Source: Nannocystis sp. (lineage in GTDB: Bacteria > Myxococcota_A > Polyangia > Nannocystales > Nannocystaceae). Taken from it: a DNA stretch of 37,303 bases. Position numbers and translations under genes: made by a program. The stretch lies in assembly GCF_016717175.1 (NCBI RefSeq), contig NZ_JADKFZ010000003.1; one strand, given 5' to 3'. Every line of letters begins with the position of its first letter. The first letter of the stretch is position 1. Below are positions 1,395-33,662 of the stretch, piece by piece. The notes beneath the pieces are model-generated. The model ran no database searches, was not told where the DNA came from, and saw only the letters and a list, made by a program, of their open reading frames with translations.

Positions 1395-3308
1395 ATGTCT
1401 CACCGCCGCCTCCTCGCAATCCCTCTCGCGCTCGTGGCGTGTGATCCGGCGACCGGCGATCGGGACGGCGGGCTGGATGTCCCGGAGGACAGGTCGGATG
1501 TCCCGGGGGACATCCGGGCGCCGGGCGGGCTGGATGTCCCGGAGGACAGGTCGGATGTCCCGGAGGACATCCAGGACGCGGCCGAACTCGGGGCGCCGCG
1601 CGGGATGTCGCCGCTGGGTGGGCCGCGGGGGTGGACCACGCCGACGCCCGCGCCGCTGCCAGCGGTCAAGGCGCCGCTGCCGGCGGCGTATTGCAAGATC
1701 AACGTCAACGGCGTCGATCACGACACAGAGACGGACTACGTGCCGCACGTGGTCCAGTGCGAGAACGGGGGCGCCAACTTCGAGGCGCTCAAGGCCCAGG
1801 CGATCGCGGCCCGGTCGGTGGCGTACTACGCGATGGCGAACGACGGCAAGATCTGCGACGGGCAGGGCTGTCAGGTGTACTCGTGCAACGCCAACCCGAC
1901 GCAGGCGCAGCTCGACGCGGCCAAGGCGACGGCGGGGCAGTACCTGTCGTTCAACGGGTGGCTGACCTATGCCTTCTACGTCGCCGGCGACTCGACCACG
2001 GCGCCGCCGAGCTGCGTCGACACCGACAACGGCAACGCCTCGGCGACCGAGAAGTGGGTGACCTTCAATAATGGCAAGACGGGTTACGACGTCGACCAGA
2101 CGGGGCTCGGCTTCAAGTTCCCCGAGGACCTGAATGTGGCGGGTTACGGGCAGAACCGCGGCTGCATGTCGCAGTGGGGCGCTCGCTGCCTCGAGAACAA
2201 GAACGGCAAGAACAGCACGGACATCCTGCAGTTCTACTTCGGCGCGGACATCCAGATCTTGCAGGCGGAGGGGTCGTGTGTGGTCCCGCCGAACAAGCCG
2301 GCGAGCGGGTCGCTCGACGAGGTGAGCTGCACGCAGCTGCGCGGGTGGGCCTTCGACGGCGACAGCGGGGCCGCGGCGATCAACGCGTACGTCAGCTTCC
2401 ATGCGCCGCTCGGAGATCCGGCGGCGGTGTCGATCACGCTGCTGGCGGCGGAGCAGCGCGACGACCTGTGCGACATGCTCGGGAGCTGCACGCACGGCTT
2501 CTCGCACGGGCTGCCGCGCTCGCTGATGGACAACCAGCCGCACCCGGTGCACGCGTACGCGGTCGATCCGCAGGCCGATCCTGTCGAGGTTGGCGGTAGC
2601 CCGAAGGACCTGCTGTGCCCGCCGCCGGCGCTGCCGGAGGGGGTGCGGCGGCACATTGGCAGCCCGGAGGTGTTGGCCGACTGGCAGTTCGACACCTTCT
2701 GGCAGATGGCGAAGGTCGACGACGCGACGCTGAACGCGATCGCGGAGTGGCAGGCGATCCCGACCTCGCCGCTGCTGATGCGGGTCGAGGGCGACCCGGC
2801 GGTGTGGCTGTTCGACAACGGGTTTCGTCGGCTGATCCCGAGTCCGGAGGTGGCGGCGGCCTGGAAGATGGATCTCAACGCGGCGGCGCTGTGGACCGCG
2901 GAGGAGCTGATGATGGTGCCCGAGGGCACCCCGCTGCGACCGGAGCCGTTCCTGATCACGGGCGCGGGGCCGGCGGTGTACCTGATCGACGACGCGCAGT
3001 GTCCGGCGCAGGGCGACCCGAACGACCCGCTGTGTCCGCCACCCGACCCGAGTGGGGGTAGTGACGGCGGCGAGAGCAGCGGCGGGGCGGGCAGCTCGGG
3101 TGGCAATACCCCGACCGAGGGCTGGGTCGGGTCGGAGGGGGGCGTGGGTGCTTCGAGCGGGGCGGGCGAGGGCGGGCAGTTGGACAGCGGACCGGCGTTG
3201 CCGCCGGGGTACGGCGGCCAGAGCGGCTGTGTGGTCGATCCGGTCCAGCGGGGAGCGCCGGGTGTGCTCGTGCTCGCGGGGGTGTTGTTGCGGCGACGGC
3301 GACGCTAG
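1395..3308 (+). CDS. SpoIID/LytB-domain lipoprotein with N-terminal 19-aa tandem repeats and a MYXO-CTERM-like tail
   Basis: Start MSHRRLLAIPLALVACD has a lipobox. The motif EALKAQAIAARSVAYYAM..CDGQGCQVY resembles the SpoIID/LytB amidase-enhancer core (ALKAQAVAARTYA). The C-terminus GCVVDPVQRGAPGVLVLAGVLLRRRRR has the Cys + TM + Arg-run pattern typical of MYXO-CTERM sorting tails. Confidence 0.6.
   Translation: MSHRRLLAIPLALVACDPATGDRDGGLDVPEDRSDVPGDIRAPGGLDVPEDRSDVPEDIQDAAELGAPRGMSPLGGPRGWTTPTPAPLPAVKAPLPAAYCKINVNGVDHDTETDYVPHVVQCENGGANFEALKAQAIAARSVAYYAMANDGKICDGQGCQVYSCNANPTQAQLDAAKATAGQYLSFNGWLTYAFYVAGDSTTAPPSCVDTDNGNASATEKWVTFNNGKTGYDVDQTGLGFKFPEDLNVAGYGQNRGCMSQWGARCLENKNGKNSTDILQFYFGADIQILQAEGSCVVPPNKPASGSLDEVSCTQLRGWAFDGDSGAAAINAYVSFHAPLGDPAAVSITLLAAEQRDDLCDMLGSCTHGFSHGLPRSLMDNQPHPVHAYAVDPQADPVEVGGSPKDLLCPPPALPEGVRRHIGSPEVLADWQFDTFWQMAKVDDATLNAIAEWQAIPTSPLLMRVEGDPAVWLFDNGFRRLIPSPEVAAAWKMDLNAAALWTAEELMMVPEGTPLRPEPFLITGAGPAVYLIDDAQCPAQGDPNDPLCPPPDPSGGSDGGESSGGAGSSGGNTPTEGWVGSEGGVGASSGAGEGGQLDSGPALPPGYGGQSGCVVDPVQRGAPGVLVLAGVLLRRRRR
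1467..1580 (+). repeat. 57-bp in-frame tandem duplication encoding GGLDVPEDRSDVP(G/E)DI(R/Q)(A/D)(P/A)
   Basis: Two near-identical consecutive 19-codon units are visible in both the DNA and the translation. Each unit contains a ggatgtccc..gggacatcc inverted repeat. Confidence 0.8.
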
Positions 3309-7888: not shown

Positions 7889-8730
7889 GCCAGGTCGGAA
7901 GGGACATGTCGCGGGGGACAGGTCCGGGGGCGGCGCTGCTGCGCGCGGGGCGGGTGCTGGCGGCGATGTGGCGGCTGGGGTTGGCGGAGGCGGTGGCGTA
8001 CCGGGCGGCGATGCTGGTGTGGATCTTGACGACGACCTTCCCGCTGGTGTCGCTGGCGCTGTGGTACAGCCTGGCGGCGGACGGGCCGATCGGGGACTAC
8101 GGGCGGGCCGACTTCGTGGCGTACTTCGTGGCGGCGTTCCTGATCCGGCAGCTGACGGCGAGCTGGGTGGTGTGGGACCTGTCGGCGCAGATCGCCAGCG
8201 GGGACCTGAGCACGCTGCTGATGCGGCCGGTGCACCCGCTGCTGCACCACTTGATGCAGAACGTGGCGGCGTTGCCGGTGCGGATGGCGCTGGCGCTGCC
8301 GCTCGGGGTGCTGGTGCTGGTGCTGGCGGGCGGGATCTCGGTGGAGCCGGGGCTGCACCTGCTGCTGGTGCCGCTGGCGGTGATCCTGGCGTGGCTGCTG
8401 GGGCTGTGCGTGCAGACCTGCGTGGCCTGCCTGGCGTTCTGGGTCACCTCGTCGACGTCGCTGTTCGAGGTGTGGCTCGGGCTCTACATGGTGCTGTCGG
8501 GCTACGCGGTGCCGACCTCGCTGTTCCCGGCGGGGCTCGTCGCCGTGGTCCGCTACCTGCCGTTTCATGCGTCGCTGGGATTTCCGGTGGAGCTGACGAT
8601 CGGGCGGCTGTCGGGGCCGGAGATCGCGGCGGGCTTCGCCACGCAGGTGGTGTGGCTGGCGCTGTTCGGGGGGCTCGCGCGCTGGCTGTGGCGCCGCGGG
8701 CTGCGGGCCTACGGGGCGGTGGGAGCGTGA
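7885..8730 (+). CDS. ABC-2 family transporter permease (subunit 1)
   Basis: ATG overlaps the ATPase stop (ATGA), indicating translational coupling. About 6 TM helices and ABC-2 (PF06182-like) architecture; 281 aa. Confidence 0.7.
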
Positions 8731-9521
8731 GGCTGCGCTACTACCTGCGCCTGGTCGGCGGGCAGCTGCGCATGAGCGTGCTGGCGGCGCTGCAGTACCG
8801 GCTCGGCTTCTGGACGCAGGGGGTGCTAGGGATCTTGTGGAGCGCGCTGGGCATGGCGCCGCTGGTGATCGCGGCGTCGCGGCTCGAGTCGGTGGCTGGG
8901 TGGAAGCCGGTCGAGCTGGTGCTGCTGACGGGCTGCTTCACGACGATGACCGGGTTGTGGAGCGCGCTGCTGGGGCCGGCGTTGATCGCGAGCATGAATC
9001 ACATTCGCCGCGGGACCCTCGACTACGTGCTGCTGCGCCCGGCCGACGCGCTGGTGCTGTGCCTGGTCGCCGAGTTCGCGCCGTGGTCGCTGATCGAGGC
9101 GCTCGGCGGGTTGCTGCTGATCGCCGGGGCGCTGATCCAGCTCGGGCGGATGCCGGGGCCGCTCGAGTTGCTGGCGGCGCTCGGGCTCGGGCTGGCGGGG
9201 ATGCTCGCGCTCTATGCCCTCGGGGTGATGGTGCTGTGCGCGAGCTTCCGGGCGATGCAGCTGCAGAACCTGACGTATCTGATGGAGGCGGTGCTGGACT
9301 TCGGGCGCTGGCCGGCGCAGGTGTTTCGCGGGGCGCTGCGGGTGCTGTTCACGTACGTGGTGCCGCTGGCGGTGATGACGACATATCCGGCGCAGGCGCT
9401 GCTCGGGGAGCTCGACGGCACGACGGTGGCGACGGCGCTGGTGACGAGCGTGGGGCTGATGCTGGTGGCGCGGCTGCTGTGGCTGCGGGCGCTGCGGGGC
9501 TACACGTCGGCGTCGAGCTAG
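8727..9521 (+). CDS. ABC-2 family transporter permease (subunit 2)
   Basis: GTG start overlaps the previous stop (GTGA). Product VRLRYYLRLVGGQLRMSVLAALQYRLGFW.. is multi-TM and paralogous in layout to subunit 1. An alternative ATG lies 15 codons downstream. Confidence 0.65.
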   Translation: MRLRYYLRLVGGQLRMSVLAALQYRLGFWTQGVLGILWSALGMAPLVIAASRLESVAGWKPVELVLLTGCFTTMTGLWSALLGPALIASMNHIRRGTLDYVLLRPADALVLCLVAEFAPWSLIEALGGLLLIAGALIQLGRMPGPLELLAALGLGLAGMLALYALGVMVLCASFRAMQLQNLTYLMEAVLDFGRWPAQVFRGALRVLFTYVVPLAVMTTYPAQALLGELDGTTVATALVTSVGLMLVARLLWLRALRGYTSASS

Positions 9522-9984: not shown

Positions 9985-12015
9985 ATGGTGTCACGATGCG
10001 ATCGTCTGGGTCTCGGGGTGTGGCTTGTGATCACGGGCTGCGGCGACAGCGGGGGCGGCAGCGCCAGCGCTGCGAGCACGGGTGAGCCGCCGCTGACGAC
10101 GGGGACGGTGCCGACGACGGGCCAGACGCCGACGGGCGGCGCGACGGGGACGGGGGCCGAGGGCACGGACAGCGCGGCGGGCACGAGCACGGGCGCGAGC
10201 ACGACGGTGGCCGCGACGAGCACGAGCACGGGGGCGGCGACCGGCGGCGGCGAGACGACGAGCGGTGAGCTCGTGTTCTGCGGCGACGAGCCGCCTGCGG
10301 GCTACGTCGGCGACTTCGACGCGAACTGCAAGAGCGAGCCGCAGATCGGGGTGTTCAAGCCGGTGGTGGAGTGGAAAAAGGTCGACTGGACGGTGAACCC
10401 GGGGGCGAAGGCCGTGATGATGGCGCCGATCGTGGTGTCGCTGGACGACGACAACATGGACGGGAAGATCGACGGCGACGACCTGCCGGACCTCGCGTAC
10501 GTGACCTACGGCGGGCCCCAGGACCAGCCGGGGACGGTGCGGGCGATCTCTGGCGACGGCAGCAAGGAGCTGTGGAGCGCGGTCGACGGGCTGTGCGCGA
10601 CGTCCGGGCTGGCGGCGGGGGATATCGACGGGGATGGGATGGTCGAGCTGGTGGGCATCACGCACACGCTGCAGGTCCGGGCCTTCGAGCACGACGGGGC
10701 GATCAAGTGGACGACGGGGAGCTACGTCGGGGACATGTCGTATTGCTATTCGACGCCAGCGATCGCCGACATGGACGGCGACGGCAAGCCGGAGGTGATC
10801 GCGGGGCGGGTGATCCTCGACGCGGCGGGGCTGCAGCTCGGCAAGGGCCAGTTCGGCAGCGGCGCGGCGGCCTTCGCGAGCGCGTCGTTCGCGGCCGACA
10901 TCGACGGGGATGGTGATCAGGAGGTGGTTGTGGGCAACGCGCTGTACCGGATCGACGGCAGCGCGATCTGGTCGAACGGACAGACCGACGGCTACCCGGC
11001 GGTGGCGGACTTCGACGGCGATGGCAAGCCGGAGATCGTGGTCTCGGGCTTCGGAAAGCTGCGCCTGCAGAACGGCGGCGGCGGGACGGTGTGGGATGTG
11101 GCCAACCCGGCGCAGGGCGGCGGGCCGCCGACGATCGCGGACTTCGACGGCGACGGCGAGCCGGAGATCGGGGTCGCGGGCAAGACCAACTATGTCGTGT
11201 TCGAGACCGACGGGACGGTGCTGTGGCAGCAGCCGACGCAGGACGCGAGCTCGTCGGCGACCGGATCGTCGGTCTACGACTTCGAGGGCGACGGGATCGC
11301 GGATGTGGTCTACGCCGACGAGACGACGCTGTACGTGTACTCGGGCAAGGACGGGGCGATCAAGCTGAGCTACGGCGAGCATGCGAGCGCGACGATCATC
11401 GAGTATCCGCTGGTGGTCGACGTCGACGGCGATGATCAGGTCGAGATCGTGGTGGCGCACAGCGGCTACCAGGGGCCCGAATTCGGCATCACGGTGCTGG
11501 GCGACATGGACCAGTCATGGCGACCAGGGCGCAAGATCTGGAATCAACACGCGTACAACATCACGAACGTCGACGACGCGGGCGGCATCCCGACGTTGCC
11601 CGATCCGAACTGGTTGACCTACAATAACTTCCGCTCGGGCGACCTGTCGCCGCCGGACGGGCTGGCGGCGCCGGACCTCAAGCTGCTCGCGCCGGACGCG
11701 TGCGTGAACGAGTGCCTGGGCGGCAAGCAGGCGGTGGTCTGGTATCAGCTGGCGAACGCGGGCGCGGGCGCGCTGACGGCTGGCGCGACGGTCGAGGTGT
11801 ACGGGACCAGCATGGGCGTCGAGAAGCTGCTGGCGACCAAGCAGTTCGACATGGTGCTGGCGCCGGGCGAGGTGTCGGAGGGGCAGAGCGTGCTGGTCGA
11901 CACGACGGGGCTCGACTCGCTGCGCATGGTGGCCAAGCCGGCCGAGGAAGAGTGCGTGGTCGACCCGGCGGACGAGCTCCTGCTGGTGCCGCCGTTTTGC
12001 ACGGCGCCGGGGTAG
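9985..12015 (+). CDS. FG-GAP/VCBS-repeat beta-propeller lipoprotein with a T/S/G-rich linker
   Basis: Signal and lipobox MVSRCDRLGLGVWLVITGCGD. At least seven repeats of the form hhxDhDGDGxxEhhhG (DIDGDGMVELVG, ADMDGDGKPEVIAG, ADIDGDGDQEVVVG, ADFDGDGKPEIVVSG, ADFDGDGEPEIGVAG, YDFEGDGIADVVYAD, VDVDGDDQVEIVVAH) are integrin-alpha FG-GAP-like Ca-binding repeats. Confidence 0.7.
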   Translation: MVSRCDRLGLGVWLVITGCGDSGGGSASAASTGEPPLTTGTVPTTGQTPTGGATGTGAEGTDSAAGTSTGASTTVAATSTSTGAATGGGETTSGELVFCGDEPPAGYVGDFDANCKSEPQIGVFKPVVEWKKVDWTVNPGAKAVMMAPIVVSLDDDNMDGKIDGDDLPDLAYVTYGGPQDQPGTVRAISGDGSKELWSAVDGLCATSGLAAGDIDGDGMVELVGITHTLQVRAFEHDGAIKWTTGSYVGDMSYCYSTPAIADMDGDGKPEVIAGRVILDAAGLQLGKGQFGSGAAAFASASFAADIDGDGDQEVVVGNALYRIDGSAIWSNGQTDGYPAVADFDGDGKPEIVVSGFGKLRLQNGGGGTVWDVANPAQGGGPPTIADFDGDGEPEIGVAGKTNYVVFETDGTVLWQQPTQDASSSATGSSVYDFEGDGIADVVYADETTLYVYSGKDGAIKLSYGEHASATIIEYPLVVDVDGDDQVEIVVAHSGYQGPEFGITVLGDMDQSWRPGRKIWNQHAYNITNVDDAGGIPTLPDPNWLTYNNFRSGDLSPPDGLAAPDLKLLAPDACVNECLGGKQAVVWYQLANAGAGALTAGATVEVYGTSMGVEKLLATKQFDMVLAPGEVSEGQSVLVDTTGLDSLRMVAKPAEEECVVDPADELLLVPPFCTAPG

Positions 12016-12972: not shown

Positions 12973-13009
12973 GGCACCTGTCCGCGGGGACAGGTCAGGT
13001 CGTGACTCA
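12970..13009. repeat. Single-unit GGGACAG palindromic element (cctgtcc-gcgg-ggacagg + ggtcaggtcgtgactcagg) spanning exactly from the + gene TGA to the nqrM TGA
   Basis: ggcTGAggcacCTGTCCgcggGGACAGgtcaggtcgtgacTCAggcgg: a perfect 7-bp stem hairpin, with end modules shared with the arrays at 26.9 and 31.9 kb. Confidence 0.7.
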
Positions 13010-23501: not shown

Positions 23502-24338
23502 ATGGGTGTGATGCTGGTCGGCTGCAGTCGACCCAATCCTCTGTTTGTGCTCGCCACGGAGGGGGCCGACTCCACCTCGTTGGCGACCTCGGTGAGCGCC
23601 GGGCCGAGTACGGGGGCCGAGGGCACCGGGGCCGCTTCGTCGGGTGAGACCGGCGCATCGGACACGACGGGCGGCGTGGTGATGACGACGAGCACGAGTG
23701 CGGGCACGAGCACGAGTCAGGGGACGAGCACGGGCGAGGGGACGAGCACGGGTGATGCGATGAGCACCGGGGCGGACGGGTCGTCGAGCGGTGAGACCAC
23801 CGGCGGGGGAGAGAAGGAGGTGCTCGAGTACGACCTGTGGGAGCTGTGTCCGGAGCCGATCACGAGCTGGAACTCGGAGGGGCAGCTGCCGCTCCCGCTG
23901 ATGTGCAATGTGGCACCGATGCCGCCGCAGGCGCCGTGGGCGGGGAAGTTGCTCCCGGGGTTCAAGTTCGATGGTGTGCTGGAGCCGCACGTGCTGGCGG
24001 AGGTGCCGTTCCCGGGGGTGGGAAATTCGGTGACTGGCTTCTATTCGGGGCTGGTGCTCAACGGGGTGAATTCGCCGCGGCTGGTCACTGTGCTGATCTG
24101 CCCGGGGCCGGGGAGCTGCGACATCGTCGGTGGGATCCGGGTCGAGGTGGAGAACGTGGTCCAGGCGTTCAAGGAGAACATCTCGCTGGGCATGGGGGAG
24201 TTTGCGAAGATCGACATCCCCCTCGAGGTGGTCAACGACGGGACGCCCTTCGACGTGGCGATGGTCGTGACCTCCAAGGTCGACGCGGCGTCGAGTCGTG
24301 GGCTGTGGCTGCGGCCGCGGATCGTCAGCTCGCCGTGA
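23502..24338 (+). CDS. hypothetical lipoprotein with a G/S/T-rich low-complexity linker
   Basis: MGVMLVGCSRP has a lipobox, followed by a ~100-aa STG-rich linker (GTSTSQGTSTGEGTSTG) and a Cys-containing globular C-terminal domain. Its 3' end overlaps the convergent aminotransferase by 14 nt. Confidence 0.45.
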   Translation: MGVMLVGCSRPNPLFVLATEGADSTSLATSVSAGPSTGAEGTGAASSGETGASDTTGGVVMTTSTSAGTSTSQGTSTGEGTSTGDAMSTGADGSSSGETTGGGEKEVLEYDLWELCPEPITSWNSEGQLPLPLMCNVAPMPPQAPWAGKLLPGFKFDGVLEPHVLAEVPFPGVGNSVTGFYSGLVLNGVNSPRLVTVLICPGPGSCDIVGGIRVEVENVVQAFKENISLGMGEFAKIDIPLEVVNDGTPFDVAMVVTSKVDAASSRGLWLRPRIVSSP

Positions 24339-25545
24339 TGTGCAGCTCGTGGGCGAGGGCCTGGGCGAGGGCGTCGTAGTCTTCGTCGCGGTTGTAGGCC
24401 TGGGCGGAGATGCGGATCAGGCGGCGGGGCGGGGCGGGCCACACGGGCCAAACGGGCCAAACGGGAATGGGGACCTCGATGTGGTGGCGCTCGTAGAGGG
24501 CGAGCTGGAGCGGGTCGGCGTGGAACGGGGAGGCCAGACCGCCGGGGCCGTCGGGGAGGGGCAGGGCGGCGAGGTTGCCGAGCATGGCGTCGGGGGCCGG
24601 GGCGGCGACGCCGAGGACGGCGGCGAGGCGGTCGCGCCCGCGGAGCAGCTGGGCGTGGTTGCGGGCGCGGAGCTCGGGCCAGCCGCCGGGGAACAGCTCG
24701 CCGAGCCAGCGGATCGCCGGGGCGACGCACAGCCAGGGGGTCGGGTCGTCGGTGCCGGTCCAGTCGAACTCCTCCCACAGGGCCGGGCGGCCGCGGGCGG
24801 TGAGGTTGTAGCCGTGGCTGATGATGGTCGGGTGGAGGCCCGATTGGCGATCGCGGCGGACGTGCAAGATGGCGGCGCCCTTGGGGGCGCAGACCCACTT
24901 GTGGAAGTTGCCGGTGTAGTAGGCGGCGCCGAGGGCGTCGAGCTCGAGCGGGACCATGCCGGGGCCGTGGGCGCCGTCGACCAGGGTGTCGACGCCGCGC
25001 TCACGCAGGGCCGCGACGATCTCGGCGACCGGGAAGATGAGGCCGGTCGGGCTGGTGATGTGGTCGACGAGGGCGAGGCGCGTGCGCGGGCTGACGCCGG
25101 CGAGCAGCGGGGCGACGACCTCGTCGGGGCCGGCGATCGGGAAGGGCACGTGGACGACGACGAGGCGGGCGCCGCTGCGCTCGCAGAGGTGGCGCAGGGC
25201 GTTGTGGCAGGCGCCGTAGACGTGGTCGGTGGTGAGCAGCTCGTCGCCGGGTTCGAGGCGCAGCGAGCCGAGCACGGCGGCGACGCCGGCGGTGGCGTTG
25301 CGGACGAAGGCGAGGTCCTCCGGGCGGGCGCCGAGGAAGCCGGCGACCTGCTCACGGGCGTGGTCGAGGAGGGGCCCCAGGGCGTGGATGTAGAAGTGGA
25401 CCGGCTCGCGCTCGATGACGGCGCGCAGGCGGTCCTGCTCGGCGAGGATGACCCGCGGGCAGGCGCCGAAGGAGCCGTGGTTGAGGAAGACGACCGCGGG
25501 GTCGAGGGTCCAGTGGGCGCGGAGATCGTCCGCCGTCGGCCGCAT
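24325..25545 (-). CDS. Class V (fold type I) PLP-dependent aminotransferase / isopenicillin-N-epimerase-like
   Basis: FLNHGSFGACP near the N-terminus; the PLP-lysine motif GNFHKW; ~400 aa. Start MRPTADDLRAHWTLDPAVVFLNHGS. Confidence 0.8.
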   Translation of the reverse strand: MRPTADDLRAHWTLDPAVVFLNHGSFGACPRVILAEQDRLRAVIEREPVHFYIHALGPLLDHAREQVAGFLGARPEDLAFVRNATAGVAAVLGSLRLEPGDELLTTDHVYGACHNALRHLCERSGARLVVVHVPFPIAGPDEVVAPLLAGVSPRTRLALVDHITSPTGLIFPVAEIVAALRERGVDTLVDGAHGPGMVPLELDALGAAYYTGNFHKWVCAPKGAAILHVRRDRQSGLHPTIISHGYNLTARGRPALWEEFDWTGTDDPTPWLCVAPAIRWLGELFPGGWPELRARNHAQLLRGRDRLAAVLGVAAPAPDAMLGNLAALPLPDGPGGLASPFHADPLQLALYERHHIEVPIPVWPVWPVWPAPPRRLIRISAQAYNRDEDYDALAQALAHELHITAS

Positions 25546-25567
25546 GCCGGCGAGTATACTGCGGCCG

Positions 25568-26884
25568 ATGCTGCGCACGGCGGTCCGTAACAGCTTCGGG
25601 GCGGCGCTGCGGGTGTTCTTTCGCCGCATCGAGGTGGTGGGGGCGGAGCGGGTGCCGGCGACGGGGCCGGTGATCTTCGTGCTGAACCACCCGAACGCGC
25701 TGATCGACCCGGCCTTCTTGCTGTGCCTGGCGCCGCGTCCGGTGTCGTTCCTGGCCAAGGCGCCGCTGTTTCAGACGCCGGTGCTGGGGTGGATCGTGCG
25801 GGCCTTCGACTCGATCCCGATCCACCGCAAGCAGGACGAGGGCGGGGCGGTCGACAACCGCGACACCTTCAAGCTGGCGCGCGAGCTGCTGCAGCGGGGC
25901 CAGACGGTGGCGATCTTCCCGGAGGGGACCTCGCACAGCGAGCCGCACCTGAAGCCGCTGAAGACGGGGGCGGCCCGCATCGCCCTGGGGACCGGGCTCG
26001 CGGACCTGAAGATCGTGCCGACGGGGCTGTACTACGTCAACAAGGCGAAGTTTCGCAGCGACGCGCTGGTGGTCTACGGCGAGCCGTTTGGCGTTGAAGC
26101 AGCGGTGGGCGAGCCCGGGGCGGAGCCGGCGGCGGCGGCGGTGCAGGCGTTGACGGGGCGGATCGAGCGGGCGCTCGGCGAGGTGCTGCTGCAGGCGGAC
26201 CAGGCGGAGGCGCTGGCGCTGGTCGAGCGGGTCAGCCGGATCTTCGCGGCGACCAGCGAGGCGCCGTGGTCGCTGGCGGAGGGCTTCGAGCTGCGCCGGC
26301 GGGTCGCGGCCGGGTACTCGCGGCTAAGAGAGGCGGACCCGGTGGCGGTGGCGGCCGTGCGGGCCCGGGTGGAGCGCTACGAGCAGGATCTGGCGGCGCT
26401 GGGGATGTCGCCGGAGCACTACGGGCCGGCGGACTTCACGGTGATGGGGAGCGTCCGCTACGCGCTGCGCAGCGCGGGGAGCCTGCTGTTGCTGCTGCCG
26501 CTGGCGCTGCTCGGGACGGCGCTGCACCTGCCGATCTACCTCGTGATCGATGCGATCGCAGGGCGGATCGCCCGCGATGAGATGGACATGCCGGCGACGA
26601 TCAAGCTGCTGGCGGCGATGCTGCTGTACCCGCTGGCGTGGATCACGATCGGGGTGGTGGCCGGGGTGCTGTGGGGAGGGGCGTGGGGGGTGCTGGCGGG
26701 GCTGCTGGCGCCGATCAGCGCGGCGGCGGCGTTGTTGTTTCGCGAGCGCTTCGCCACGGTCGGGGCGGCGGCGCGGGGGCTGCTGCTGTTCGTGACGCGG
26801 CGCAACACGCTGGCGCGGCTGCACGGCGATCGCATGGCGATCCGGGCGGCGATCGTGGAGCTGGCGCGGCGGGTCGAGGGCTGA
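25568..26884 (+). CDS. PlsC-like lysophospholipid acyltransferase with a C-terminal multi-TM extension
   Basis: HxxxxD acyltransferase motif VLNHPNALID and the FPEGT motif, followed by a hydrophobic C-terminal third. Start ambiguity: ATG 25568 (MLRTAV..) or ATG 25544 (MPASIL..), the latter overlapping the divergent aminotransferase start. Confidence 0.7.
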   Translation: MLRTAVRNSFGAALRVFFRRIEVVGAERVPATGPVIFVLNHPNALIDPAFLLCLAPRPVSFLAKAPLFQTPVLGWIVRAFDSIPIHRKQDEGGAVDNRDTFKLARELLQRGQTVAIFPEGTSHSEPHLKPLKTGAARIALGTGLADLKIVPTGLYYVNKAKFRSDALVVYGEPFGVEAAVGEPGAEPAAAAVQALTGRIERALGEVLLQADQAEALALVERVSRIFAATSEAPWSLAEGFELRRRVAAGYSRLREADPVAVAAVRARVERYEQDLAALGMSPEHYGPADFTVMGSVRYALRSAGSLLLLLPLALLGTALHLPIYLVIDAIAGRIARDEMDMPATIKLLAAMLLYPLAWITIGVVAGVLWGGAWGVLAGLLAPISAAAALLFRERFATVGAAARGLLLFVTRRNTLARLHGDRMAIRAAIVELARRVEG

Positions 26885-26990
26885 GGCTGGCGGAAGGGAC
26901 AGGCTGGTCGAAGGGACAGGCTGGCCGAAGGGACAGACTGGCGGAAGGGACAGGCTGGCCGAAGGGACAGGCTGGCCGAAGGGTCAGGTC
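26882..26990. repeat. Six tandem copies of a 17-bp unit GGCTGGCCGAAGGGACA, bounded by the TGA of the + gene and (via ggTCAgg) the stop of the - strand reading frame
   Basis: Copies in order: ggctggcggaagggaca / ggctggtcgaagggaca / ggctggccgaagggaca / gactggcggaagggaca / ggctggccgaagggaca / ggctggccgaagggtca, then ggtcgcgggtgggg. Confidence 0.85.
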
Positions 26991-27071
26991 GCGGGTGGGG
27001 CCGGGGCGGCGCCGGGCGGGCTCGTGGGTCGATCCGCGGGCTCGCCAGCGGGCGCGGCGGGCAAGGGGAGC

Positions 27072-28367
27072 TCAGCGTCGGCGATCGTGAGGGCGGACCC
27101 CTGGGCGGCCTTCTGGTGGGCCTCCTCGGCGGCGAGGCGATGCTTGGGGTTTGCGATCGTGCCGACGACGTCGCCGCCGCAGCGGGGGCAGACCTTGGTC
27201 GTTGGGGGTGAGCGGGCCGCCGCACTTGGGCTCGGAGCAGCGGCGGTCGCGGAACAGGCGGCCGAGGCCGAGGCCGGCGAGGCCGAGGCCGGCGGCGATG
27301 ACGGCGATGTTGCTCATGCCGGGGCCCTGGTCGGGGGACATGCGGGACAGCACGCCGCCGAGCATGAGGGCGCCCATGAAGAGGACACGGCCGAGGCGGG
27401 GGGCCAGGCTGCGGTCGACCATGAAGACGGGCTTGCCGGTGTTCATGCCGGCGACGCCGCGGTCCTCGTCGCGGCGGGTCTCGGGCTCGGCCTCGGGCTC
27501 GCGCGCGAGCGGGGCGGTGAGGGCGGCGAGGGAGGGCGGGGCGGGCCAGTGGTCCTTGCCGGGGACGCCGAGCTGGACGCCGATCGGTGGGTCCATGCGC
27601 TCGATGGCGGCGAAGCTGTGGCGGAAGAAGGCGGCCTGGTTGGCCTGGAGGGCGCGGGCGAGGCGTTGGCGCTCGGCCCGGCCCTCGCCGCGGACGTGGA
27701 CCTGCACGGCGAGCAGGAAGCAGATGGCCTGGGGCGGCAGGCTGCCGAGGCGCAGGGGGACGCGGCGGTTCTGGACGGCGCCGGTGCTGCTGCGGCTGGT
27801 GAAGCGGAGGGCGGCGTCGGCGGTGAGCAGGCCGAAGCCGAGGTAGACGGCGCTGACGTCGATGCGGGGGTCGTAGGCGTCGCTGACGGGGAGGTTGTGG
27901 GCGAGGCGATGGGCGTGGCTGACGACGCGGGCGCAGGCGGCGACGAGGCTGGCGGGGTCGGCCATGGCGCTGGCCTCGACGCCGACCTCGAGGCCAGCTC
28001 CCGGACCGGGGCCACCCTTGAAGCTGGCGAGCCACACGACCAGCTCCTGGGCGCCTCGCGGGGTGACCGGCTTGCCGATGACCTCGCCGCGGCGGGCGGG
28101 CTCGGCGTCGTAGATGCGGACGCCGACGCGGAGGTCGTCGGGGAGGCCGGCGTAGGCGCAGAGCCGGAGGAGGAGGCGGCGGACGCTGCTGTCGCCGCCG
28201 CCCCAGGGGTCGGGGAAGAAGCGCGGGCTCGGCTCGACGAGCAGGCTGGTGGCGAGCGGGCCGGGGCCGAGCGCGACGACCAGCGCCCGCAGCTGCTCCT
28301 GCAACCAGCGGCGATCGTCCTGCGGCGGGAGCATGAGCCCATCGTCGCCCTGTTCCGGCCCGGCCAT
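27072..28367 (-). CDS. hypothetical membrane-associated protein with a C-terminal split C4 zinc ribbon; an apparent -1 frameshift in a C5 homopolymer (about 27204-27208) truncates it, and the corrected ORF would end at about 26984
   Basis: N-terminus MAGPEQGDDGLMLPP.., ~300-aa soluble region, hydrophobic segment MSNIAVIAAGLGLAGLGLG, then CSEPKC. The shifted frame continues PPTTKVCPRCGGDVVGTIANPKHRLAAEEAHQKAAQGSALTIADAE...APAPPAT*, completing C-x4-C-x10-C-x2-C. Confidence 0.45.
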   Translation of the reverse strand: MAGPEQGDDGLMLPPQDDRRWLQEQLRALVVALGPGPLATSLLVEPSPRFFPDPWGGGDSSVRRLLLRLCAYAGLPDDLRVGVRIYDAEPARRGEVIGKPVTPRGAQELVVWLASFKGGPGPGAGLEVGVEASAMADPASLVAACARVVSHAHRLAHNLPVSDAYDPRIDVSAVYLGFGLLTADAALRFTSRSSTGAVQNRRVPLRLGSLPPQAICFLLAVQVHVRGEGRAERQRLARALQANQAAFFRHSFAAIERMDPPIGVQLGVPGKDHWPAPPSLAALTAPLAREPEAEPETRRDEDRGVAGMNTGKPVFMVDRSLAPRLGRVLFMGALMLGGVLSRMSPDQGPGMSNIAVIAAGLGLAGLGLGRLFRDRRCSEPKCGGPLTPNDQGLPPLRRRRRRHDRKPQASPRRRGGPPEGRPGVRPHDRRR

Positions 28368-28466
28368 GGCGCTGCTCTCTACCACGAGTGGCGCCGGGTC
28401 TGTCGCCTGTGAGCTGGCGCGGGGGCTGACCCGAAACCGGGGGGCGAGGGTAACATCCGCGGCCGC

Positions 28467-31400
28467 ATGCGCCGCACCGCCCTGTCTCGCCCGTCCGTCG
28501 CGCTGGTCTCGCTGGGTCTCGGGCTGAGTCTCGTGACCTGCGCCCCGAAGGCGCCGAGCAGCCCGCCAGCGCTCGCCCACACGCCCGGCGCGCCCGCCAC
28601 CAAGCCGACACCTGTCCCGAAGGACAGCACGGGGAAGGCCGAGCCGGAGGTCCCGAAGTGGGACGTGAACGACCCGCCGGGCGAGGAGCAGGAGGTCAAG
28701 CTGGACGTCCGCGAGGGCACGTGGATGGCGCTCGACGTGAGCCCGGATGGGCGCGAGCTCGTGTTCGACCTGCTCGGCGACCTGTATCTCCTGCCGATCG
28801 CGGGCGGCGAGGCGCGGGCGCTGACGCAGGGGATGGCCTGGGACATGCAGCCGCGCTTCAGCCCGGACGGGCAGTGGATCGCGTTCACCAGCGACCGCGG
28901 CGGCGGCGACAACGTGTGGGTGCTCGCGCGGCCGACGGCTGCGGGGGCGGTGGTGGCGGAGCCGAAGCCAGAGCCCAAGCAAGTCACGAAGGAGGACTTC
29001 CGGCTGGTGAACAGCCCGGTGTGGTCGCCCGACGGGAACTTCATCGCGGTGCGCAAGCACTTCACCAAGCACCGCAGCCTCGGCACCGGCGAGATCTGGC
29101 TGTACCACGTGGCGGGCGGCAAGGGCGTGCCGATGACGGAGAAGGTCAACGACCAGAAGGATGTCGGCGAGCCGGCGTTCTCGCCGGACGGGGCCCATCT
29201 TTACTTCAGCCTCGACAACACGCCGGGGGCGACCTTCGAGTACAACAAGGACCCGTACGGCGAGATCTACGCGATCAAGCGGCTGGAGCGGGCCAGCGGG
29301 CGCATCGAGACGCTGGCCGGCGGGCCCGGGGGCGCGGCCCGGCCGACGCCGTCGCCGGACGGCAAGTCGCTGGCGTTCATCCGTCGCGTCGGCGGCACCG
29401 CGGGCGCGCCGGACAAGACGACGCTGATGGTCCGCGAGCTGCAGTCGGGGGCGGAGCGCCCGGTGTTCGCGGGGCTCGACCGCGACATGCAGGAGACCTG
29501 GGCGATCCATGGCGTGTACCCGGCGATCGCGTGGACGCCGGACAGCCGCGAGCTGGTGTTCTGGGCCGCGGGCAAGCTGTGGCGCACGCGGGCCGACGGC
29601 AGCCAGGCGGCGCCGACCGAGATCCCGTTCCACGTGAGCGGGACCCGCAAGGTGGCGCCGGCGCTGCGCTTCGCGGTCGAGGTGGCGCCGCGCGAGGTCG
29701 ACGTGAAGGCGCTGCGCGGGGTGACGGTGAGCCCGGACGGCGGCCGCGTGGTCTACCAGGCGCTCGGCCACCTGTACGTACGGACATTGCCCGAAGGACA
29801 GGCGAAGCGGCTGACCAAGCAGAGCGACCACTTCGAGCAGGACCCGGCCTTCTCGCGCGACGGCAAGCAGATCGTGTTCACGACCTGGGACGACCAGGCG
29901 CTCGGCAGCGTGCGCACGATCGCGGTCGGCGGCGGCAAGGAGCGGGTGATCAGCGATCGGCCGGGGCACTACGTGGCGCCGCAGTGGAGCCCGGACGGCA
30001 AGCAGGTGGTCGTGCAGCGGATCGGCGGGGGCTGGACGCGCTCGCCGACCTGGTCGCAGGAGCAGGGCATCTACGCGATCGAGGTGAAGACGGCGAAGGC
30101 GACGCTGGTCCGCCGCGACGGGGCCGAGCCGCACTTCGGGGCGGCGAGCGATCGGCTGTTCTTCAGCAGCTACGACGACGACAAGGTGGAGCTGCGCAGC
30201 GTGGAGCTGGACGGCAGCGACGAGCGCACGCACGTGAAGACGGAGGGGGCGAGCCGCCTGCGGGTGTCACCGGACGGGCGCTGGCTGGGCTGGACGGAGG
30301 GCTTCCAGGCGCTGATCGCCCCGCTGCCGCCGACCGGGCGGACCATCGAGCTGGGGCCGAAGGCGGAGGGGCTGCCGGTCGCCAAGGTGAGCCGCGACGC
30401 GGGCGAGCACGTGCACTGGTCGGGCGACAGCCAGCGCCTGCACTGGTCGCTGGGGCCCGAGCTGTACACGCGCGAGCTGAAGGACGCGTTCGCGTTCGTG
30501 GCCGGGGCCCCGGCGGAGCTGCCCAAGCCGGCGGAGACGGGGCTGGCGATCGGCTTCAAGGCGCCCGCGGCGGTGCCGACGGGGACGCGGGCGATCGTCG
30601 GGGCGCGGGTGATCACGATGCGCGGCGACGAGGTGATCGAGGACGCGACGATCGTGATCAACGGCGATCGCATCAGCGCGATCGGGCCGTCGGCGCAGCT
30701 GCAGGCGCCGGCCGGGGCGGAGGTCGTGCGGGCCGAGGGCAAGACGATCATCCCGGGGCTGATCGACGTGCACGCGCACGGCAGCCAGGGCGAGGACGGC
30801 ATCACGCCGGAGCAGAACTGGCTGCACTACGCGATGCTGGCGTACGGGGTGACGACGGTGCACGACCCGAGCAACGACACGGCGTCGATCTTCGCGGCGA
30901 GCGAGATGCAGCGGGTCGGGGCGGTGGTCGGGCCGCGCATCTTCTCGACCGGGACGATCCTGTACGGGGCGCAGGCGCCGTTCAAGGCGGAGATCGCCAG
31001 CCTCGAGGACGCGCGCGGGCACCTGCGCCGGCTCAAGGCGATCGGGGCCTTCTCGGTCAAGAGCTACAACCAGCCGCGGCGAGAGCAGCGGCAGCAGGTG
31101 ATCGCGGCGGCGCGCGAGCTCGGGATGATGGTGGTGCCGGAGGGCGGCGCGCTGTTTCACCACAACATGACGATGGTCGCCGACGGGCACACGGGCATCG
31201 AGCACGCGCTGCCGGTGGCCAGCGCCTACGCGGACGTGATGCAGTACTGGGGGGCGACCAAGGTCGGCTACACGCCGACGCTCGGGGTGGCCTACGGGGG
31301 CTTAGGCGGCGAGAACTACTGGTACGCGCACACGCAGGTGTGGGAGGACAGCCGGCTGCGGCGCTTCGTGCCGGCCAACGCGTTCGAGCCGCGCGCCCGT

Positions 31401-31874
31401 CGGCGGACCCTGGCGGCCGACAACGACTGGAACCACGTGCGGGTGGCGAGCCTGGCCAAGCAGCTGCTCGACGCGGGCGTGAAGGTGCAGCTGGGGGCGC
31501 ACGGGCAGCGCGAGGGGCTGGCGGTGCACTGGGAGCTGTGGAGCTTCGCCCAGGGCGGGATGACGCCGCTCGAGGTGCTGCGCACGGGCACCCTGGCGGG
31601 GGCGCAGTACCTCGGCCTCGACCGCGACCTCGGCTCGCTCGAGCCGGGCAAGCTGGCGGACCTCTTGATCCTCGACCGCGACCCGCGGGTCGACATCCGC
31701 GCGACCCGGCAGGTGGCGATGGTGATGATCGGCGGGCAGCTGTTCGACGCGGGGACCATGGCGGAGATCGGCGGGGCGAAGCGGGTGCCGCAGCCGTTCT
31801 ACTTCAGCGAGGGCGGGCGCCTGAGCGGCAAGCCGCCCGCGCACGCGCAGTGCGTCGGCCACGCGGCGCACTGA
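28467..31874 (+). CDS. Lipoprotein fusing an N-terminal TolB-like (PD40/WD40-like) beta-propeller to a C-terminal metal-dependent amidohydrolase domain
   Basis: Lipobox LSLVTCAP. Repeated ..SPDG(K/Q)xIAF/VF.. PD40 motifs (FSPDGQWIAFTSDRGG, WSPDGNFIAV, SPDGKSLAFI, WSPDGKQVVV). The amidohydrolase metal-binding signature is IIPGLIDVHAHG..., with later GHTGIEHA and HGQREG motifs. Confidence 0.8.
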   Translation: MRRTALSRPSVALVSLGLGLSLVTCAPKAPSSPPALAHTPGAPATKPTPVPKDSTGKAEPEVPKWDVNDPPGEEQEVKLDVREGTWMALDVSPDGRELVFDLLGDLYLLPIAGGEARALTQGMAWDMQPRFSPDGQWIAFTSDRGGGDNVWVLARPTAAGAVVAEPKPEPKQVTKEDFRLVNSPVWSPDGNFIAVRKHFTKHRSLGTGEIWLYHVAGGKGVPMTEKVNDQKDVGEPAFSPDGAHLYFSLDNTPGATFEYNKDPYGEIYAIKRLERASGRIETLAGGPGGAARPTPSPDGKSLAFIRRVGGTAGAPDKTTLMVRELQSGAERPVFAGLDRDMQETWAIHGVYPAIAWTPDSRELVFWAAGKLWRTRADGSQAAPTEIPFHVSGTRKVAPALRFAVEVAPREVDVKALRGVTVSPDGGRVVYQALGHLYVRTLPEGQAKRLTKQSDHFEQDPAFSRDGKQIVFTTWDDQALGSVRTIAVGGGKERVISDRPGHYVAPQWSPDGKQVVVQRIGGGWTRSPTWSQEQGIYAIEVKTAKATLVRRDGAEPHFGAASDRLFFSSYDDDKVELRSVELDGSDERTHVKTEGASRLRVSPDGRWLGWTEGFQALIAPLPPTGRTIELGPKAEGLPVAKVSRDAGEHVHWSGDSQRLHWSLGPELYTRELKDAFAFVAGAPAELPKPAETGLAIGFKAPAAVPTGTRAIVGARVITMRGDEVIEDATIVINGDRISAIGPSAQLQAPAGAEVVRAEGKTIIPGLIDVHAHGSQGEDGITPEQNWLHYAMLAYGVTTVHDPSNDTASIFAASEMQRVGAVVGPRIFSTGTILYGAQAPFKAEIASLEDARGHLRRLKAIGAFSVKSYNQPRREQRQQVIAAARELGMMVVPEGGALFHHNMTMVADGHTGIEHALPVASAYADVMQYWGATKVGYTPTLGVAYGGLGGENYWYAHTQVWEDSRLRRFVPANAFEPRARRRTLAADNDWNHVRVASLAKQLLDAGVKVQLGAHGQREGLAVHWELWSFAQGGMTPLEVLRTGTLAGAQYLGLDRDLGSLEPGKLADLLILDRDPRVDIRATRQVAMVMIGGQLFDAGTMAEIGGAKRVPQPFYFSEGGRLSGKPPAHAQCVGHAAH

Positions 31875-32054
31875 GGCTGTCTGCGGGGACAGGTGGGCTG
31901 TCCGCGGGGACAGGTGGTGCTGTCCCTCGGGACAGCTCTGATCGGCTGGCCGCGGGGACAGGTGGTGCTGTCCATCGGGACAGGTCAGGTCGCGGGTGGG
32001 CGGCTCAGGTGGGTTGTCTGAAGGGACAGGTGAGCTGTCCGCCGGGACAGCTCA
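31872..32054. repeat. Array of ~8 imperfect hairpin units (CTGTCC-N3-4-GGGACAG, ~21-22 bp period) plus two GGTCAGGTCGCGGG(T/C)GGGCGG end modules, spanning exactly from the amidohydrolase TGA to the murJ TGA
   Basis: Units in order: ctgtctgcggggacag, gctgtccgcggggacag, gctgtccctcgggacag, ggccgcggggacag, gctgtccatcgggacag, ttgtctgaagggacag, gctgtccgccgggacag. The murJ last codons ..PPAT-TGA are the reverse complement of ctcaggtcgcgggcgggcgg. Confidence 0.85.
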
Positions 32055-33662
32055 GGTCGCGGGCGGGCGGCGGCGGATCCGTCGCCACAGGCTGCGTGGG
32101 AGGCGGGCGAGGCTGTCGATGCCGGGGAAGCGGGCGAGCTGCAGCACGCTGACGTAGACGAGGAAGCCGAGGCCGACGATGAGCAGGAGGGCGAGGGCGA
32201 GGGCGAGGGTGGCGAGCGGGCCGCGCAGGGCGAGCTGCGTGAGGCCGAGGGCGGCGCCGGTCCAGGCGGCGTAGAGGACTCCGCCCATGACGGCGTTGGC
32301 GAGCAGCAGCCAGGCGAGCTCGCGGACGCGGCCGGGGCGGGCGAGCGGGCCGACCTTGCGGGCGAAGAACAGGCGCAGGAGGCCGACGTTGACGAGGGCG
32401 CCGAGGCTGGTGCCGAGCGCGAGGCCGGGGGCGCCGAGCTGGCGGTAGAAGTAGGCGTTGAAGGCGATGGTGGCCGCGATCGCGGCGAGCGAGGCGAGCA
32501 GGGGCAGGCGCGGGCGGTCGGTCGCGTAGAAGGCGGGGGCGACGATCTTGACCATGCTGTAGGGGACCAGGCCGAGGGCGTAGGCGCGGAGGATCGCGGC
32601 GACGGCGAGGGTGTCGGCGGCGGTGAAGCGGCCGCCCTCGTAGATCAGGGAGACGATCGGCTCGGCGAGGACGACCAGGCCGACGGTGCTGGCGGCGGTC
32701 AGCAGCCAGAGGGCGGACAGGCTCTCACCTGTCTTTTGGACCAGGCCGCTGCGGTCGCCGCGGGCGGCCTCCTCGGACAGCTGGGTGGTGGCGATGGTGG
32801 CGAGGGCGACGCCGAACATGCCGATCGGGAGGTAGAAGATGCGAAACGCGTACTCGAGCTGGGCGACGGGGCCGTCGCCGAGGCTGGCGGCGAAGCGGGT
32901 GTTGACGAAGATGTTGACCTGGATCGCGGCGACGCCGACGACGGCGGGGAGCATCATGCGGGCGATCCTCCGCACGCCGGGGTGGCGCCAGGCGCCGCGC
33001 AGGGCCAGGCGCGGGCGGTAGCCGAGGCGCCACAGCGGGGGCAGGAGGTAGAAGCTCTGGACCACGCCGGCGGCGAGGGTGCCGATGCTCCACGCGGTCA
33101 CGGCCCACATGCCGCCGGCGCCGGCGATCCACAGGCCAGCGCCGCAAAGCACGCTGATCACGTTGAACAGCGCGGGCGCGTAGGCGGGGGCGAGGAAGTG
33201 GCGCTGCGCGTTGAGCATGCCGGTCCACACGGCGCCGACGCTGACGAGGGCGAGCAGCGGCATCATGATGCGGGTCAGCGCGGCGGCGTCGGCGAGCTTG
33301 GCGGGGCTCCAGCCGGCGGTCATGAGGCGGACCAGGTCGTCGGCGAACACGACGCCCAGCAGGGTGAGGCCGCCGGTGACGAGCAGCAGGACCGCGAGGG
33401 TGAGGTTGGCGAGCTGGTCAGCGCGGGCCCGGTCCTCCTGCACGAGGGCGGCGGTGAAGGTCGGGACGAAGGCGCTCGAGAGGGCGCCCTCGGCCAGCAG
33501 ATCGCGCAGGAGGTTCGGGATCCGGAAGGCGACGGAGTAGGCGTCGGCGAGCGCCCCGGCGCCGACGAGGCGGGAGAACAGGGCCTCGCGCAGGAGGCCG
33601 AGCACGCGTGACACGGCGACGGCCAGGCTGAGCGACCCGGATCTCTGCAAGCTGCCGGACAA
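32052..33662 (-). CDS. murJ: Lipid II flippase MurJ (MviN)
   Basis: N-terminal signature AVAVSRVLGLLREALFSRLVGAGALADAYSVAFRIPNLLRDLLAEGALSSAFVPTF; 14 predicted TM helices; 536 aa. Confidence 0.9.
   Translation of the reverse strand: MSGSLQRSGSLSLAVAVSRVLGLLREALFSRLVGAGALADAYSVAFRIPNLLRDLLAEGALSSAFVPTFTAALVQEDRARADQLANLTLAVLLLVTGGLTLLGVVFADDLVRLMTAGWSPAKLADAAALTRIMMPLLALVSVGAVWTGMLNAQRHFLAPAYAPALFNVISVLCGAGLWIAGAGGMWAVTAWSIGTLAAGVVQSFYLLPPLWRLGYRPRLALRGAWRHPGVRRIARMMLPAVVGVAAIQVNIFVNTRFAASLGDGPVAQLEYAFRIFYLPIGMFGVALATIATTQLSEEAARGDRSGLVQKTGESLSALWLLTAASTVGLVVLAEPIVSLIYEGGRFTAADTLAVAAILRAYALGLVPYSMVKIVAPAFYATDRPRLPLLASLAAIAATIAFNAYFYRQLGAPGLALGTSLGALVNVGLLRLFFARKVGPLARPGRVRELAWLLLANAVMGGVLYAAWTGAALGLTQLALRGPLATLALALALLLIVGLGFLVYVSVLQLARFPGIDSLARLPRSLWRRIRRRPPAT

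Follow-up and report, generated by a model that had tools for sequence, protein, structure and literature searches.

A probable minisatellite-like expansion of a short palindromic repeat between convergent genes in Nannocystis

Background

Palindromic repeats that alter the ends of coding sequences are known from Rickettsia (RPEs) and Neisseria (Correia elements), where they are 100-150 bp long and carry terminal inverted repeats (TIRs), and intrinsic terminator hairpins of the "I-shaped" type, which lack a U-tract, have been predicted in high-GC bacteria. Members of the genus Nannocystis have very large, GC-rich genomes rich in natural-product genes. The described sequences that most resemble the repeats reported here are the REP/BIME elements of Proteobacteria and the stem-loop sequence families, all of them short, GC-rich imperfect palindromes present in many copies per genome (Di Nocera et al. 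2013, PMC3733652). Tandem reiteration of REPs is frequent, and the RAYT-type palindromes carry a GTAG or CGTC tetranucleotide at one end (PMC3733652). In E. coli, REPs in the 3′ UTR terminate transcription and stabilise the message, also where two genes converge (bioRxiv 10.64898/2026.03.23.713779).

Here we analyse a stretch of 37,303 nucleotides from Nannocystis sp. (RefSeq assembly GCF_016717175.1, contig NZ_JADKFZ010000003.1), referred to below as the window, in which the spacer between two convergent genes is occupied by copies of a 17-bp unit. This array most probably arose as a lineage-specific, VNTR- or minisatellite-like tandem expansion of a single member of a family of short intergenic palindromes, CTGTCC-N4-GGACAG, that appears to be common in Nannocystis genomes. 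The locus is an ordinary fast-evolving repeat, neither a new kind of system nor a new mechanism. The family is REP-like and, as far as the searched literature shows, undescribed, as our searches did not turn up any account of repeats of this type in Nannocystis or other myxobacteria. Its arrays shift in copy number between close lineages, break short-read assemblies, set the final codons of certain genes and coincide with synteny breakpoints, and could find practical use in strain typing, in quality control of metagenome-assembled genomes (MAGs) and in 3′-end annotation.

Results and discussion

Comparison with described repeat systems

The CTGTCC-N4-GGACAG family, judged from the window and related loci, appears to share with REP/BIME sequences its short, GC-rich, imperfectly palindromic structure and high copy number, its extragenic position, mostly just past stop codons and between convergent genes, its frequent head-to-tail reiteration in clusters whose make-up varies between strains, and an expected action in the 3′ UTR. 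It differs from them in its shorter stems (6-8 bp, with a 4-nt loop), in a hairpin core of only 16-22 nt, as opposed to a palindrome of ~20-40 nt, in the amplification of a mismatched variant at an exact 17-bp period, and in flanks that carry the stop codons ending neighbouring genes. Since no GTAG or CGTC tag adjoins any family unit in the window, and no RAYT (Y1 transposase) gene is found among the window ORFs, the family is not to be filed with the RAYT-type REPs.

The resemblance to I-shaped terminators lies in a GC-rich stem-loop placed directly past a stop codon, with no T run and with a symmetry that makes it usable on both strands. Such terminators need structure alone, whereas here one stem sequence recurs at many family loci, which calls for copying or for a sequence-specific partner, and most units of the array have lost the stem. 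As in the case of RPEs and Correia elements, the family repeat gives codons and/or stops to host genes, and one hairpin lies inside an ORF (Table 1), but the hairpins are only 16-22 nt long and have no detectable TIR or target-site duplication (TSD). Finally, the mycobacterial MIRU VNTRs are also intergenic head-to-tail repeats that vary in copy number among relatives and have borders touching the flanking stop codons; they differ in their unit length (40-100 bp versus 17 bp), in lying within operons, in having an embedded small ORF and in lacking an origin from a palindromic family. Both hallmarks of a VNTR are present at our locus, namely head-to-tail copies and a copy number that differs between related genomes at the same site (6 in the window versus 7, 2 and 1).

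The array and its flanking genes

In the window, which has a G+C content of 70-75%, Tandem Repeats Finder (TRF) reported a tandem repeat at 26884-26988 with a period of 17, 6.2 copies, 90% matches, 0 indels and a score of 175. Its six head-to-tail units (Table 1) follow one another with no spacer, and each is 0-2 bases away from GGCTGGCCGAAGGGACA. When up to 3 mismatches are allowed, the 17-mer is matched 9 times in the window versus 0.28 expected; six make up the array, and the other three belong to a second array at 31.9 kb. The initial annotation had placed six tandem 17-bp units between convergent stops, beginning at the acyltransferase TGA, and both points were borne out: unit 1 adjoins that TGA, and the minus-strand TGA of the opposing gene lies within unit 6. 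The six units comprise four distinct sequences in a fixed order. At a lag of 51 the array matches itself at 94% of positions, versus 91% at a lag of 17, and an alignment of units 1-3 with units 4-6 has 3 mismatches in 51; the 51-bp superperiod suggests a past duplication of a three-unit block.

Table 1. Positions of the array, its flanking genes and the other family loci in the window
Feature	Position	Strand	Description
Variant-subfamily array	1475-1570	+	ATGTCC-CGGR-GGACAG/GGACAT, dimer repeated at 57 nt; upstream of a SpoIID-like gene
Degenerate family locus	7893-7925		
Single canonical unit	12978-12993	+	CTGTCCGCGGGGACAG then GTCAGGTCGT (to 13003); 5 nt past the stop of a nucleoside-hydrolase-like gene
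Acyltransferase gene	25415-26884	+	PF01553 (Pfam, 6e-26); stop TGA 26882-26884
Six-unit array	26885-26986	+	Head-to-tail 17-bp units
Units 1-5, consensus	26885-26969	+	GGCTGG[C/T][C/G]GAAGGGACA (unit 4: GACTGG)
Unit 1	26885-26901	+	GGCTGGCGGAAGGGACA
Unit 2	26902-26918	+	GGCTGGTCGAAGGGACA
Unit 3	26919-26935	+	GGCTGGCCGAAGGGACA
Unit 4	26936-26952	+	GACTGGCGGAAGGGACA; begins with GACTGG
Unit 5	26953-26969	+	GGCTGGCCGAAGGGACA
Unit 6	26970-26986	+	GGCTGGCCGAAGGGTCA; holds the minus-strand gene stop codon 26984-26986
16-nt tail	26984-26999	+	TCAGGTCGCGGGTGGG; minus strand CCC ACC CGC GAC CTG A, ...P-P-A-T-stop
Zinc-ribbon hypothetical gene	26984-28370	-	~460 aa, CxxxxC...CxxC; stop TGA 26984-26986 inside unit 6
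Single perfect hairpin	28612-28627		CTGTCC-CGAA-GGACAG; inside the PD40/amidohydrolase (tricorn-like) ORF, at about codon 49
Seven-unit array	31877-32067	+	Canonical and near-canonical hairpins, period 21-22, two tail copies; units at 31877-32050; between the tricorn-like gene stop (31872-31874) and the MurJ stop (32052-32054)

We consider the array to be non-coding because codon-position GC gives no coding signal through it and because 17 is not divisible by 3. We considered, and rejected, readings of the array as coding sequence, CRISPR, iterons or a known RNA: a CRISPR array requires repeats of 24-48 bp separated by unique spacers of similar length and the units here are 17 bp long and abutting, while in Rfam 15 the array has no match at the gathering threshold and the region 26700-27150 has none at E<=1.

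The 5′ limit of the acyltransferase gene in Table 1 is that of the longest ORF, and the real start is probably later. Its C-terminus, ...ARRVEG-stop, is conserved in three related loci (L019, L026 and L027), with repeats following or not, and the stop codon is therefore native; the possibility that it was supplied by the repeat was rejected. The convergent gene codes for a protein with no Pfam match, whose homologs are all from Nannocystis, Nannocystaceae or Myxococcota. Its reading frame in the window ends in ...APAPPAT-stop, as does an intact 460-aa homolog that is 99% identical. Codon-position GC (GC3) switches frame near 27150-27200, and comparison with two 99.8%-identical contigs containing the intact gene reveals one extra T at 27202/27203, representing either a true pseudogenising mutation in this strain or an assembly consensus error. 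The homopolymer frameshift postulated in the initial annotation is thus real with respect to these two contigs, but the extra T/A is situated in a TT dinucleotide beside a G5 run and not within the run.

The orthologous spacer in related genomes

The corresponding loci of relatives were taken from contigs encoding orthologs of the zinc-ribbon protein. Short-read assemblers break at repeats longer than k, and indeed two contigs that are 99.8% identical to the window in DNA (L022 and L023) stop 33 bases into the array, at window position 26954. A relative with 95% DNA identity, assembled from four samples (L019, L020, L021 and L034), has seven units of 16, 16, 14, 14, 13, 17 and 17 bp, followed by GTCGAGGGTGGGG (PPST-stop). 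At 89% DNA identity (L024 and L025) there is one GGCTGGCCGAAGGGACAG and one canonical GCTGTCCCAGAGGACAG; two units each are present at L038 (88% protein identity) and L035 (90%), and a single one at L036 and L037 (87%). No array exists in L027 and L028 (73-76% protein identity), and in L027, the 76% relative, the acyltransferase stop is immediately followed by a remnant, GGCTGTCCGCGGG. At L030 from N. bainbridge (59% protein identity), a different 14-bp hairpin repeat, GAGCATGTCC, occupies the same position downstream of the zinc-ribbon ortholog.

Alignment of these spacers shows conserved ends and a variable middle, with the stop codon of the zinc-ribbon gene contained in the last unit, GG(G)TCAGGTCG. 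Of the six other states of the orthologous locus, five have retained a last unit ending in GGTCAGGTCG, the exception, L024/L025, ending in TCAGGCCGG, and the PP(x)T-stop gene end is retained across spacer states. Expansion to 6-7 units is limited to the clade uniting the window with L019, and the two lineages diverged internally afterwards. The unit counts of 1, 2, 2, 2 and 7 in relatives, combined with preservation of the last unit and of the gene end, point to a lineage-specific, VNTR-like expansion by slippage. Slippage had already been put forward in the initial annotation along with a comparison of array lengths among strains, and the counts in the relatives' contigs do differ at the same locus.

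It is highly improbable that the length of the array is an artefact, i.e. a short tandem repeat collapsed or expanded during assembly of the MAG. The same-species short-read contigs do end inside the array, and the 1-nt indel in the neighbouring gene implies that the window consensus may hold errors. Against this, a repeat count that is wholly an artefact is unlikely to show four distinct unit sequences in a fixed order, and seven units were recovered consistently in independent assemblies of the 95% relative, made from four samples.

Folding of the units and origin of the array

The hairpin arms of units 1-5 read CTGG(C/T)(C/G) and GGACAG, and, in comparison with CTGTCC, the T>G change in the 5′ arm creates a G.A mismatch. 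These units fold at -0.1 to -6.3 kcal/mol, versus -8.3 to -14.5 kcal/mol for canonical units. Unit 6 folds at -9.7 kcal/mol on plus-strand RNA and at -3.2 kcal/mol on minus-strand RNA; its A>T change (GGGTCAG) restores stem pairing on the plus-strand RNA via G.U. As a whole, the 26.9-kb array folds no better than shuffled sequences (z -1.6 on the plus and +0.65 on the minus strand), and the 31.9-kb array yields a z of -4.8. The earlier description of the units as direct copies with a degenerate stem, and not hairpins, consequently fits units 1-5, which are weak, and the array as a whole, which behaves like its shuffles, but fails for unit 6. A terminator scan of 26880-27000 and 31870-32070 found no U-tract terminator, and no T run follows any unit, so that a canonical Rho-independent terminator was rejected.

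By analogy with REPs (PMC3733652; bioRxiv 10.64898/2026.03.23.713779), we infer a terminator or stabiliser role for the family hairpins in the 3′ UTRs of both convergent transcripts, where they may act as U-tract-less terminators and/or block 3′ exonucleases. Units 1-5 of the array are most likely neutral passengers, a stable stem being retained by the last unit alone. It is quite unlikely that copy number itself is functional, with the array being a selected multi-hairpin bidirectional terminator/insulator or expression-tuning spacer and its expansion adaptive. Such a role would agree with the location of the array exactly between two convergent stop codons, with the strong stems of canonical family members and with the correlation, in E. 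coli, between REPs located between convergent genes and higher expression of both (bioRxiv 10.64898/2026.03.23.713779), but it is difficult to reconcile with the weak folding of five of the six units in an array that folds no better than shuffled sequence, with the sufficiency of one or two units in close relatives, and with the erosion of units to 13-14 bp in the sister lineage.

Under the slippage explanation, which we prefer, the ancestral spacer would have contained one or two hairpin units directly after the convergent acyltransferase and zinc-ribbon stops. One of these would have had the 5′ arm CTGGCC and the loop GAAG, pairing poorly with GGACAG, and it may have been this unit that was multiplied by slipped-strand mispairing or unequal recombination in the window lineage, resulting in six 17-bp copies, probably via duplication of the three-unit 51-bp block. 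In the 95%-identical sister lineage, the same process may have led to seven shortened copies.

The repeat family in the window

With one mismatch allowed, CTGTCC-N4-GGACAG has 13 matches in the window versus 0.12 expected, and family members occupy six loci within 37 kb (Table 1). Family clusters are present in most related loci as well, usually abutting stop codons, and the flanks of a unit take the form ...GGTG(G)(T)G-CTGTCC...GGACAG-GTG. The assignment of the 26.9-kb and 31.9-kb arrays to the same family, made from the outset, is confirmed by their common 3′ arm GGGACAG, their start after TGAGG and a shared 16-nt tail; the CTGGCC variant of the arm is present also at 31946.

The perfect hairpin inside the tricorn-like ORF may be an in-frame intragenic copy; it is kept in orthologs with other loop bases (L019 6249, L026 6542 and L027 6964). 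In the array at 1475-1570, which sits between genes of the same direction and not between convergent ones, both arms are changed as a compensatory pair (ATGTCC...GGACAT), alternating with ATGTCC...GGACAG, and a similar array is found at L031 4264-4624. At the N. bainbridge locus L030 the family pattern is matched 15 times in 21 kb, and at 9389-9482 and 11300-11460 it has 39-nt repeats inside an ORF, each containing CAGTCCCAAGGGACAG.

The shared tail and the ends of genes

The 16-nt tail TCAGGTCGCGGGTGGG is found in identical form at 31985-32000, and 15 of its 16 bases are matched at 32052-32067, where MurJ has its stop; these are the 3 matches in the window at up to one mismatch, versus 0.01 expected. 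Minus-strand translation verifies the earlier observation that the tail gives PPAT-stop to the zinc-ribbon gene and MurJ alike. MurJ from the window is 100% identical to an NCBI protein assigned to a Nannocystis sp. MAG. The conserved core of MurJ orthologs ends in ...RR(I/L)RRR(R), and the tails beyond it vary (PPAT, AK, PAAK, RT or nothing), which identifies PPAT as a lineage-specific sequence beyond the conserved protein. Most zinc-ribbon orthologs with 87-95% identity end in PPST, TPPT, RPPT or TPPS, and one ends in APPA, with the residues upstream diverging. A third, unrelated gene (L032) ends in EPPT-stop on CCCCCGACCTGA-CCTGTCCC. The presence of the family flank ...CGACCTGA, next to the hairpin, in these non-conserved 3′ gene ends suggests that unrelated proteins receive from it their stop codon and their final residues, PP(A)T.

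Inside the 31.9-kb array, at 31985-32011, lies a non-coding duplicate of the last codons and stop of MurJ (TCAGGTCGCGGGTGGGCGGCTCAGG). In L019, the 95% relative, the array at this site comprises just 5 units and one tail, indicating that the array in the window grew by a duplication that included the last codons of MurJ and, since the duplicate is absent from L019, that array growth can copy coding 3′ ends.

The mismatched unit at unrelated loci

A metagenome scan for two adjacent 17-bp units returned four contigs, two of which represent the L019-type locus and two of which (L031 and L032) are unrelated loci. The "degenerate" unit CTGGCCGAAGGGACAG is present at both. At L032, a TGA is followed by a 13-nt leader, which resembles that of L024, two tandem 17-bp copies of GGCTGGCCGAAGGGACA, a canonical unit and GTCAGGTCG, and at L031 the order is TGA-CCTGGCCGAAGGGACAGG, another hairpin and CTGGCCGAAGGGACAGG. 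That unrelated loci share the same arm mismatch and the same GAAG loop favours copying from one locus to another over independent mutation. The "degenerate" unit is therefore a dispersed subfamily and not a private mutation. Its recurrence in mismatched form at several loci could reflect selection for a non-pairing role, such as a binding site.

That the array itself offers a DNA-binding protein a series of binding sites, of the iteron or operator kind, is extremely improbable: direct repeats phased at 17 bp and a mismatched unit sequence conserved at several loci would be in keeping with it, but the array lies between convergent 3′ ends and not at a promoter or origin, it varies from 1 to 7 copies among relatives, and a 17-bp period shifts the sites off one face of the helix.

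Dispersal raises the question of whether the family belongs to the non-autonomous mobile elements, such as REP/REPIN or MITE, that are copied by a dedicated transposase, in which case the array would have formed by repeated insertion and not by slippage. The occurrence of the same unit behind a similar leader (TGAGGG..GCCG..AGGCTGGCCGAAGGGACAGG) at unrelated loci, the high density of the family and the stop-containing flanks shared by unrelated genes all speak for mobility. We nevertheless regard this origin as rather doubtful, given that the hairpins lack the GTAG or CGTC tag (cf. PMC3733652), that no Y1 transposase is encoded in the window, that target-site duplications were not seen, and that slippage accounts better than repeated insertion for an exact 17-bp phasing with a 51-bp superperiod.

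Scanning contigs for two adjacent canonical units gave 18 stretches, one of them from Nannocystaceae (L012, a weak look-alike) and the rest from Acidobacteriota and others, in which the motif is embedded in a different repeat of ~93 nt. The Acidobacteriia MAG CAIRSA01 (L010, L011, L014, L015 and L018) has at least 6 loci with paired CTGTCC-N4-GGGACAG in the ~93-nt repeat, which constitute a look-alike family in another phylum.

Synteny breakpoints and neighbouring elements

Comparison of L026 (461-8021), which is 83-85% identical, with window positions 24222-31863 reveals an inversion, with respect to the acyltransferase block, of the segment that carries the zinc-ribbon and tricorn-like genes. 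The two breakpoints coincide in position with the 26.9-kb and 31.9-kb arrays, and the far side is joined to a gene that the window lacks. Other neighbours are found at the 3′ end of the zinc-ribbon gene in L027, L028 and L030. Taken together, the inversion and the changed neighbours indicate that the arrays coincide with synteny breakpoints.

A more far-reaching reading, which we hold to be unlikely, is that CTGTCC-N4-GGACAG is a still-active, Nannocystis-specific mobile palindrome devoid of the RAYT tag, that the TGA at both of its borders (CTGA-hairpin-TCAG) rewrites C-termini, that its arrays serve as inversion breakpoints, and that the GAAG-loop subfamily spreads by an undescribed mechanism. 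Were this true, insertion or expansion at gene ends would rewrite C-termini, as exemplified by the PP(A)T-stop in which MurJ, the zinc-ribbon protein and the third gene end.

Some introns insert after terminator hairpins. The plus strand of the window at 35572-35789 matches group II intron domains D1-D4 in Rfam (RF02005, 172 bits, E 2e-50); a link between this fragment at 35.57 kb and the family was rejected, as no CTGTCC family hairpin adjoins it. Upstream of the intron match, a short repeat, GTGGGGCAACGCGGGG, occurs twice, at ~35275 and 35331.
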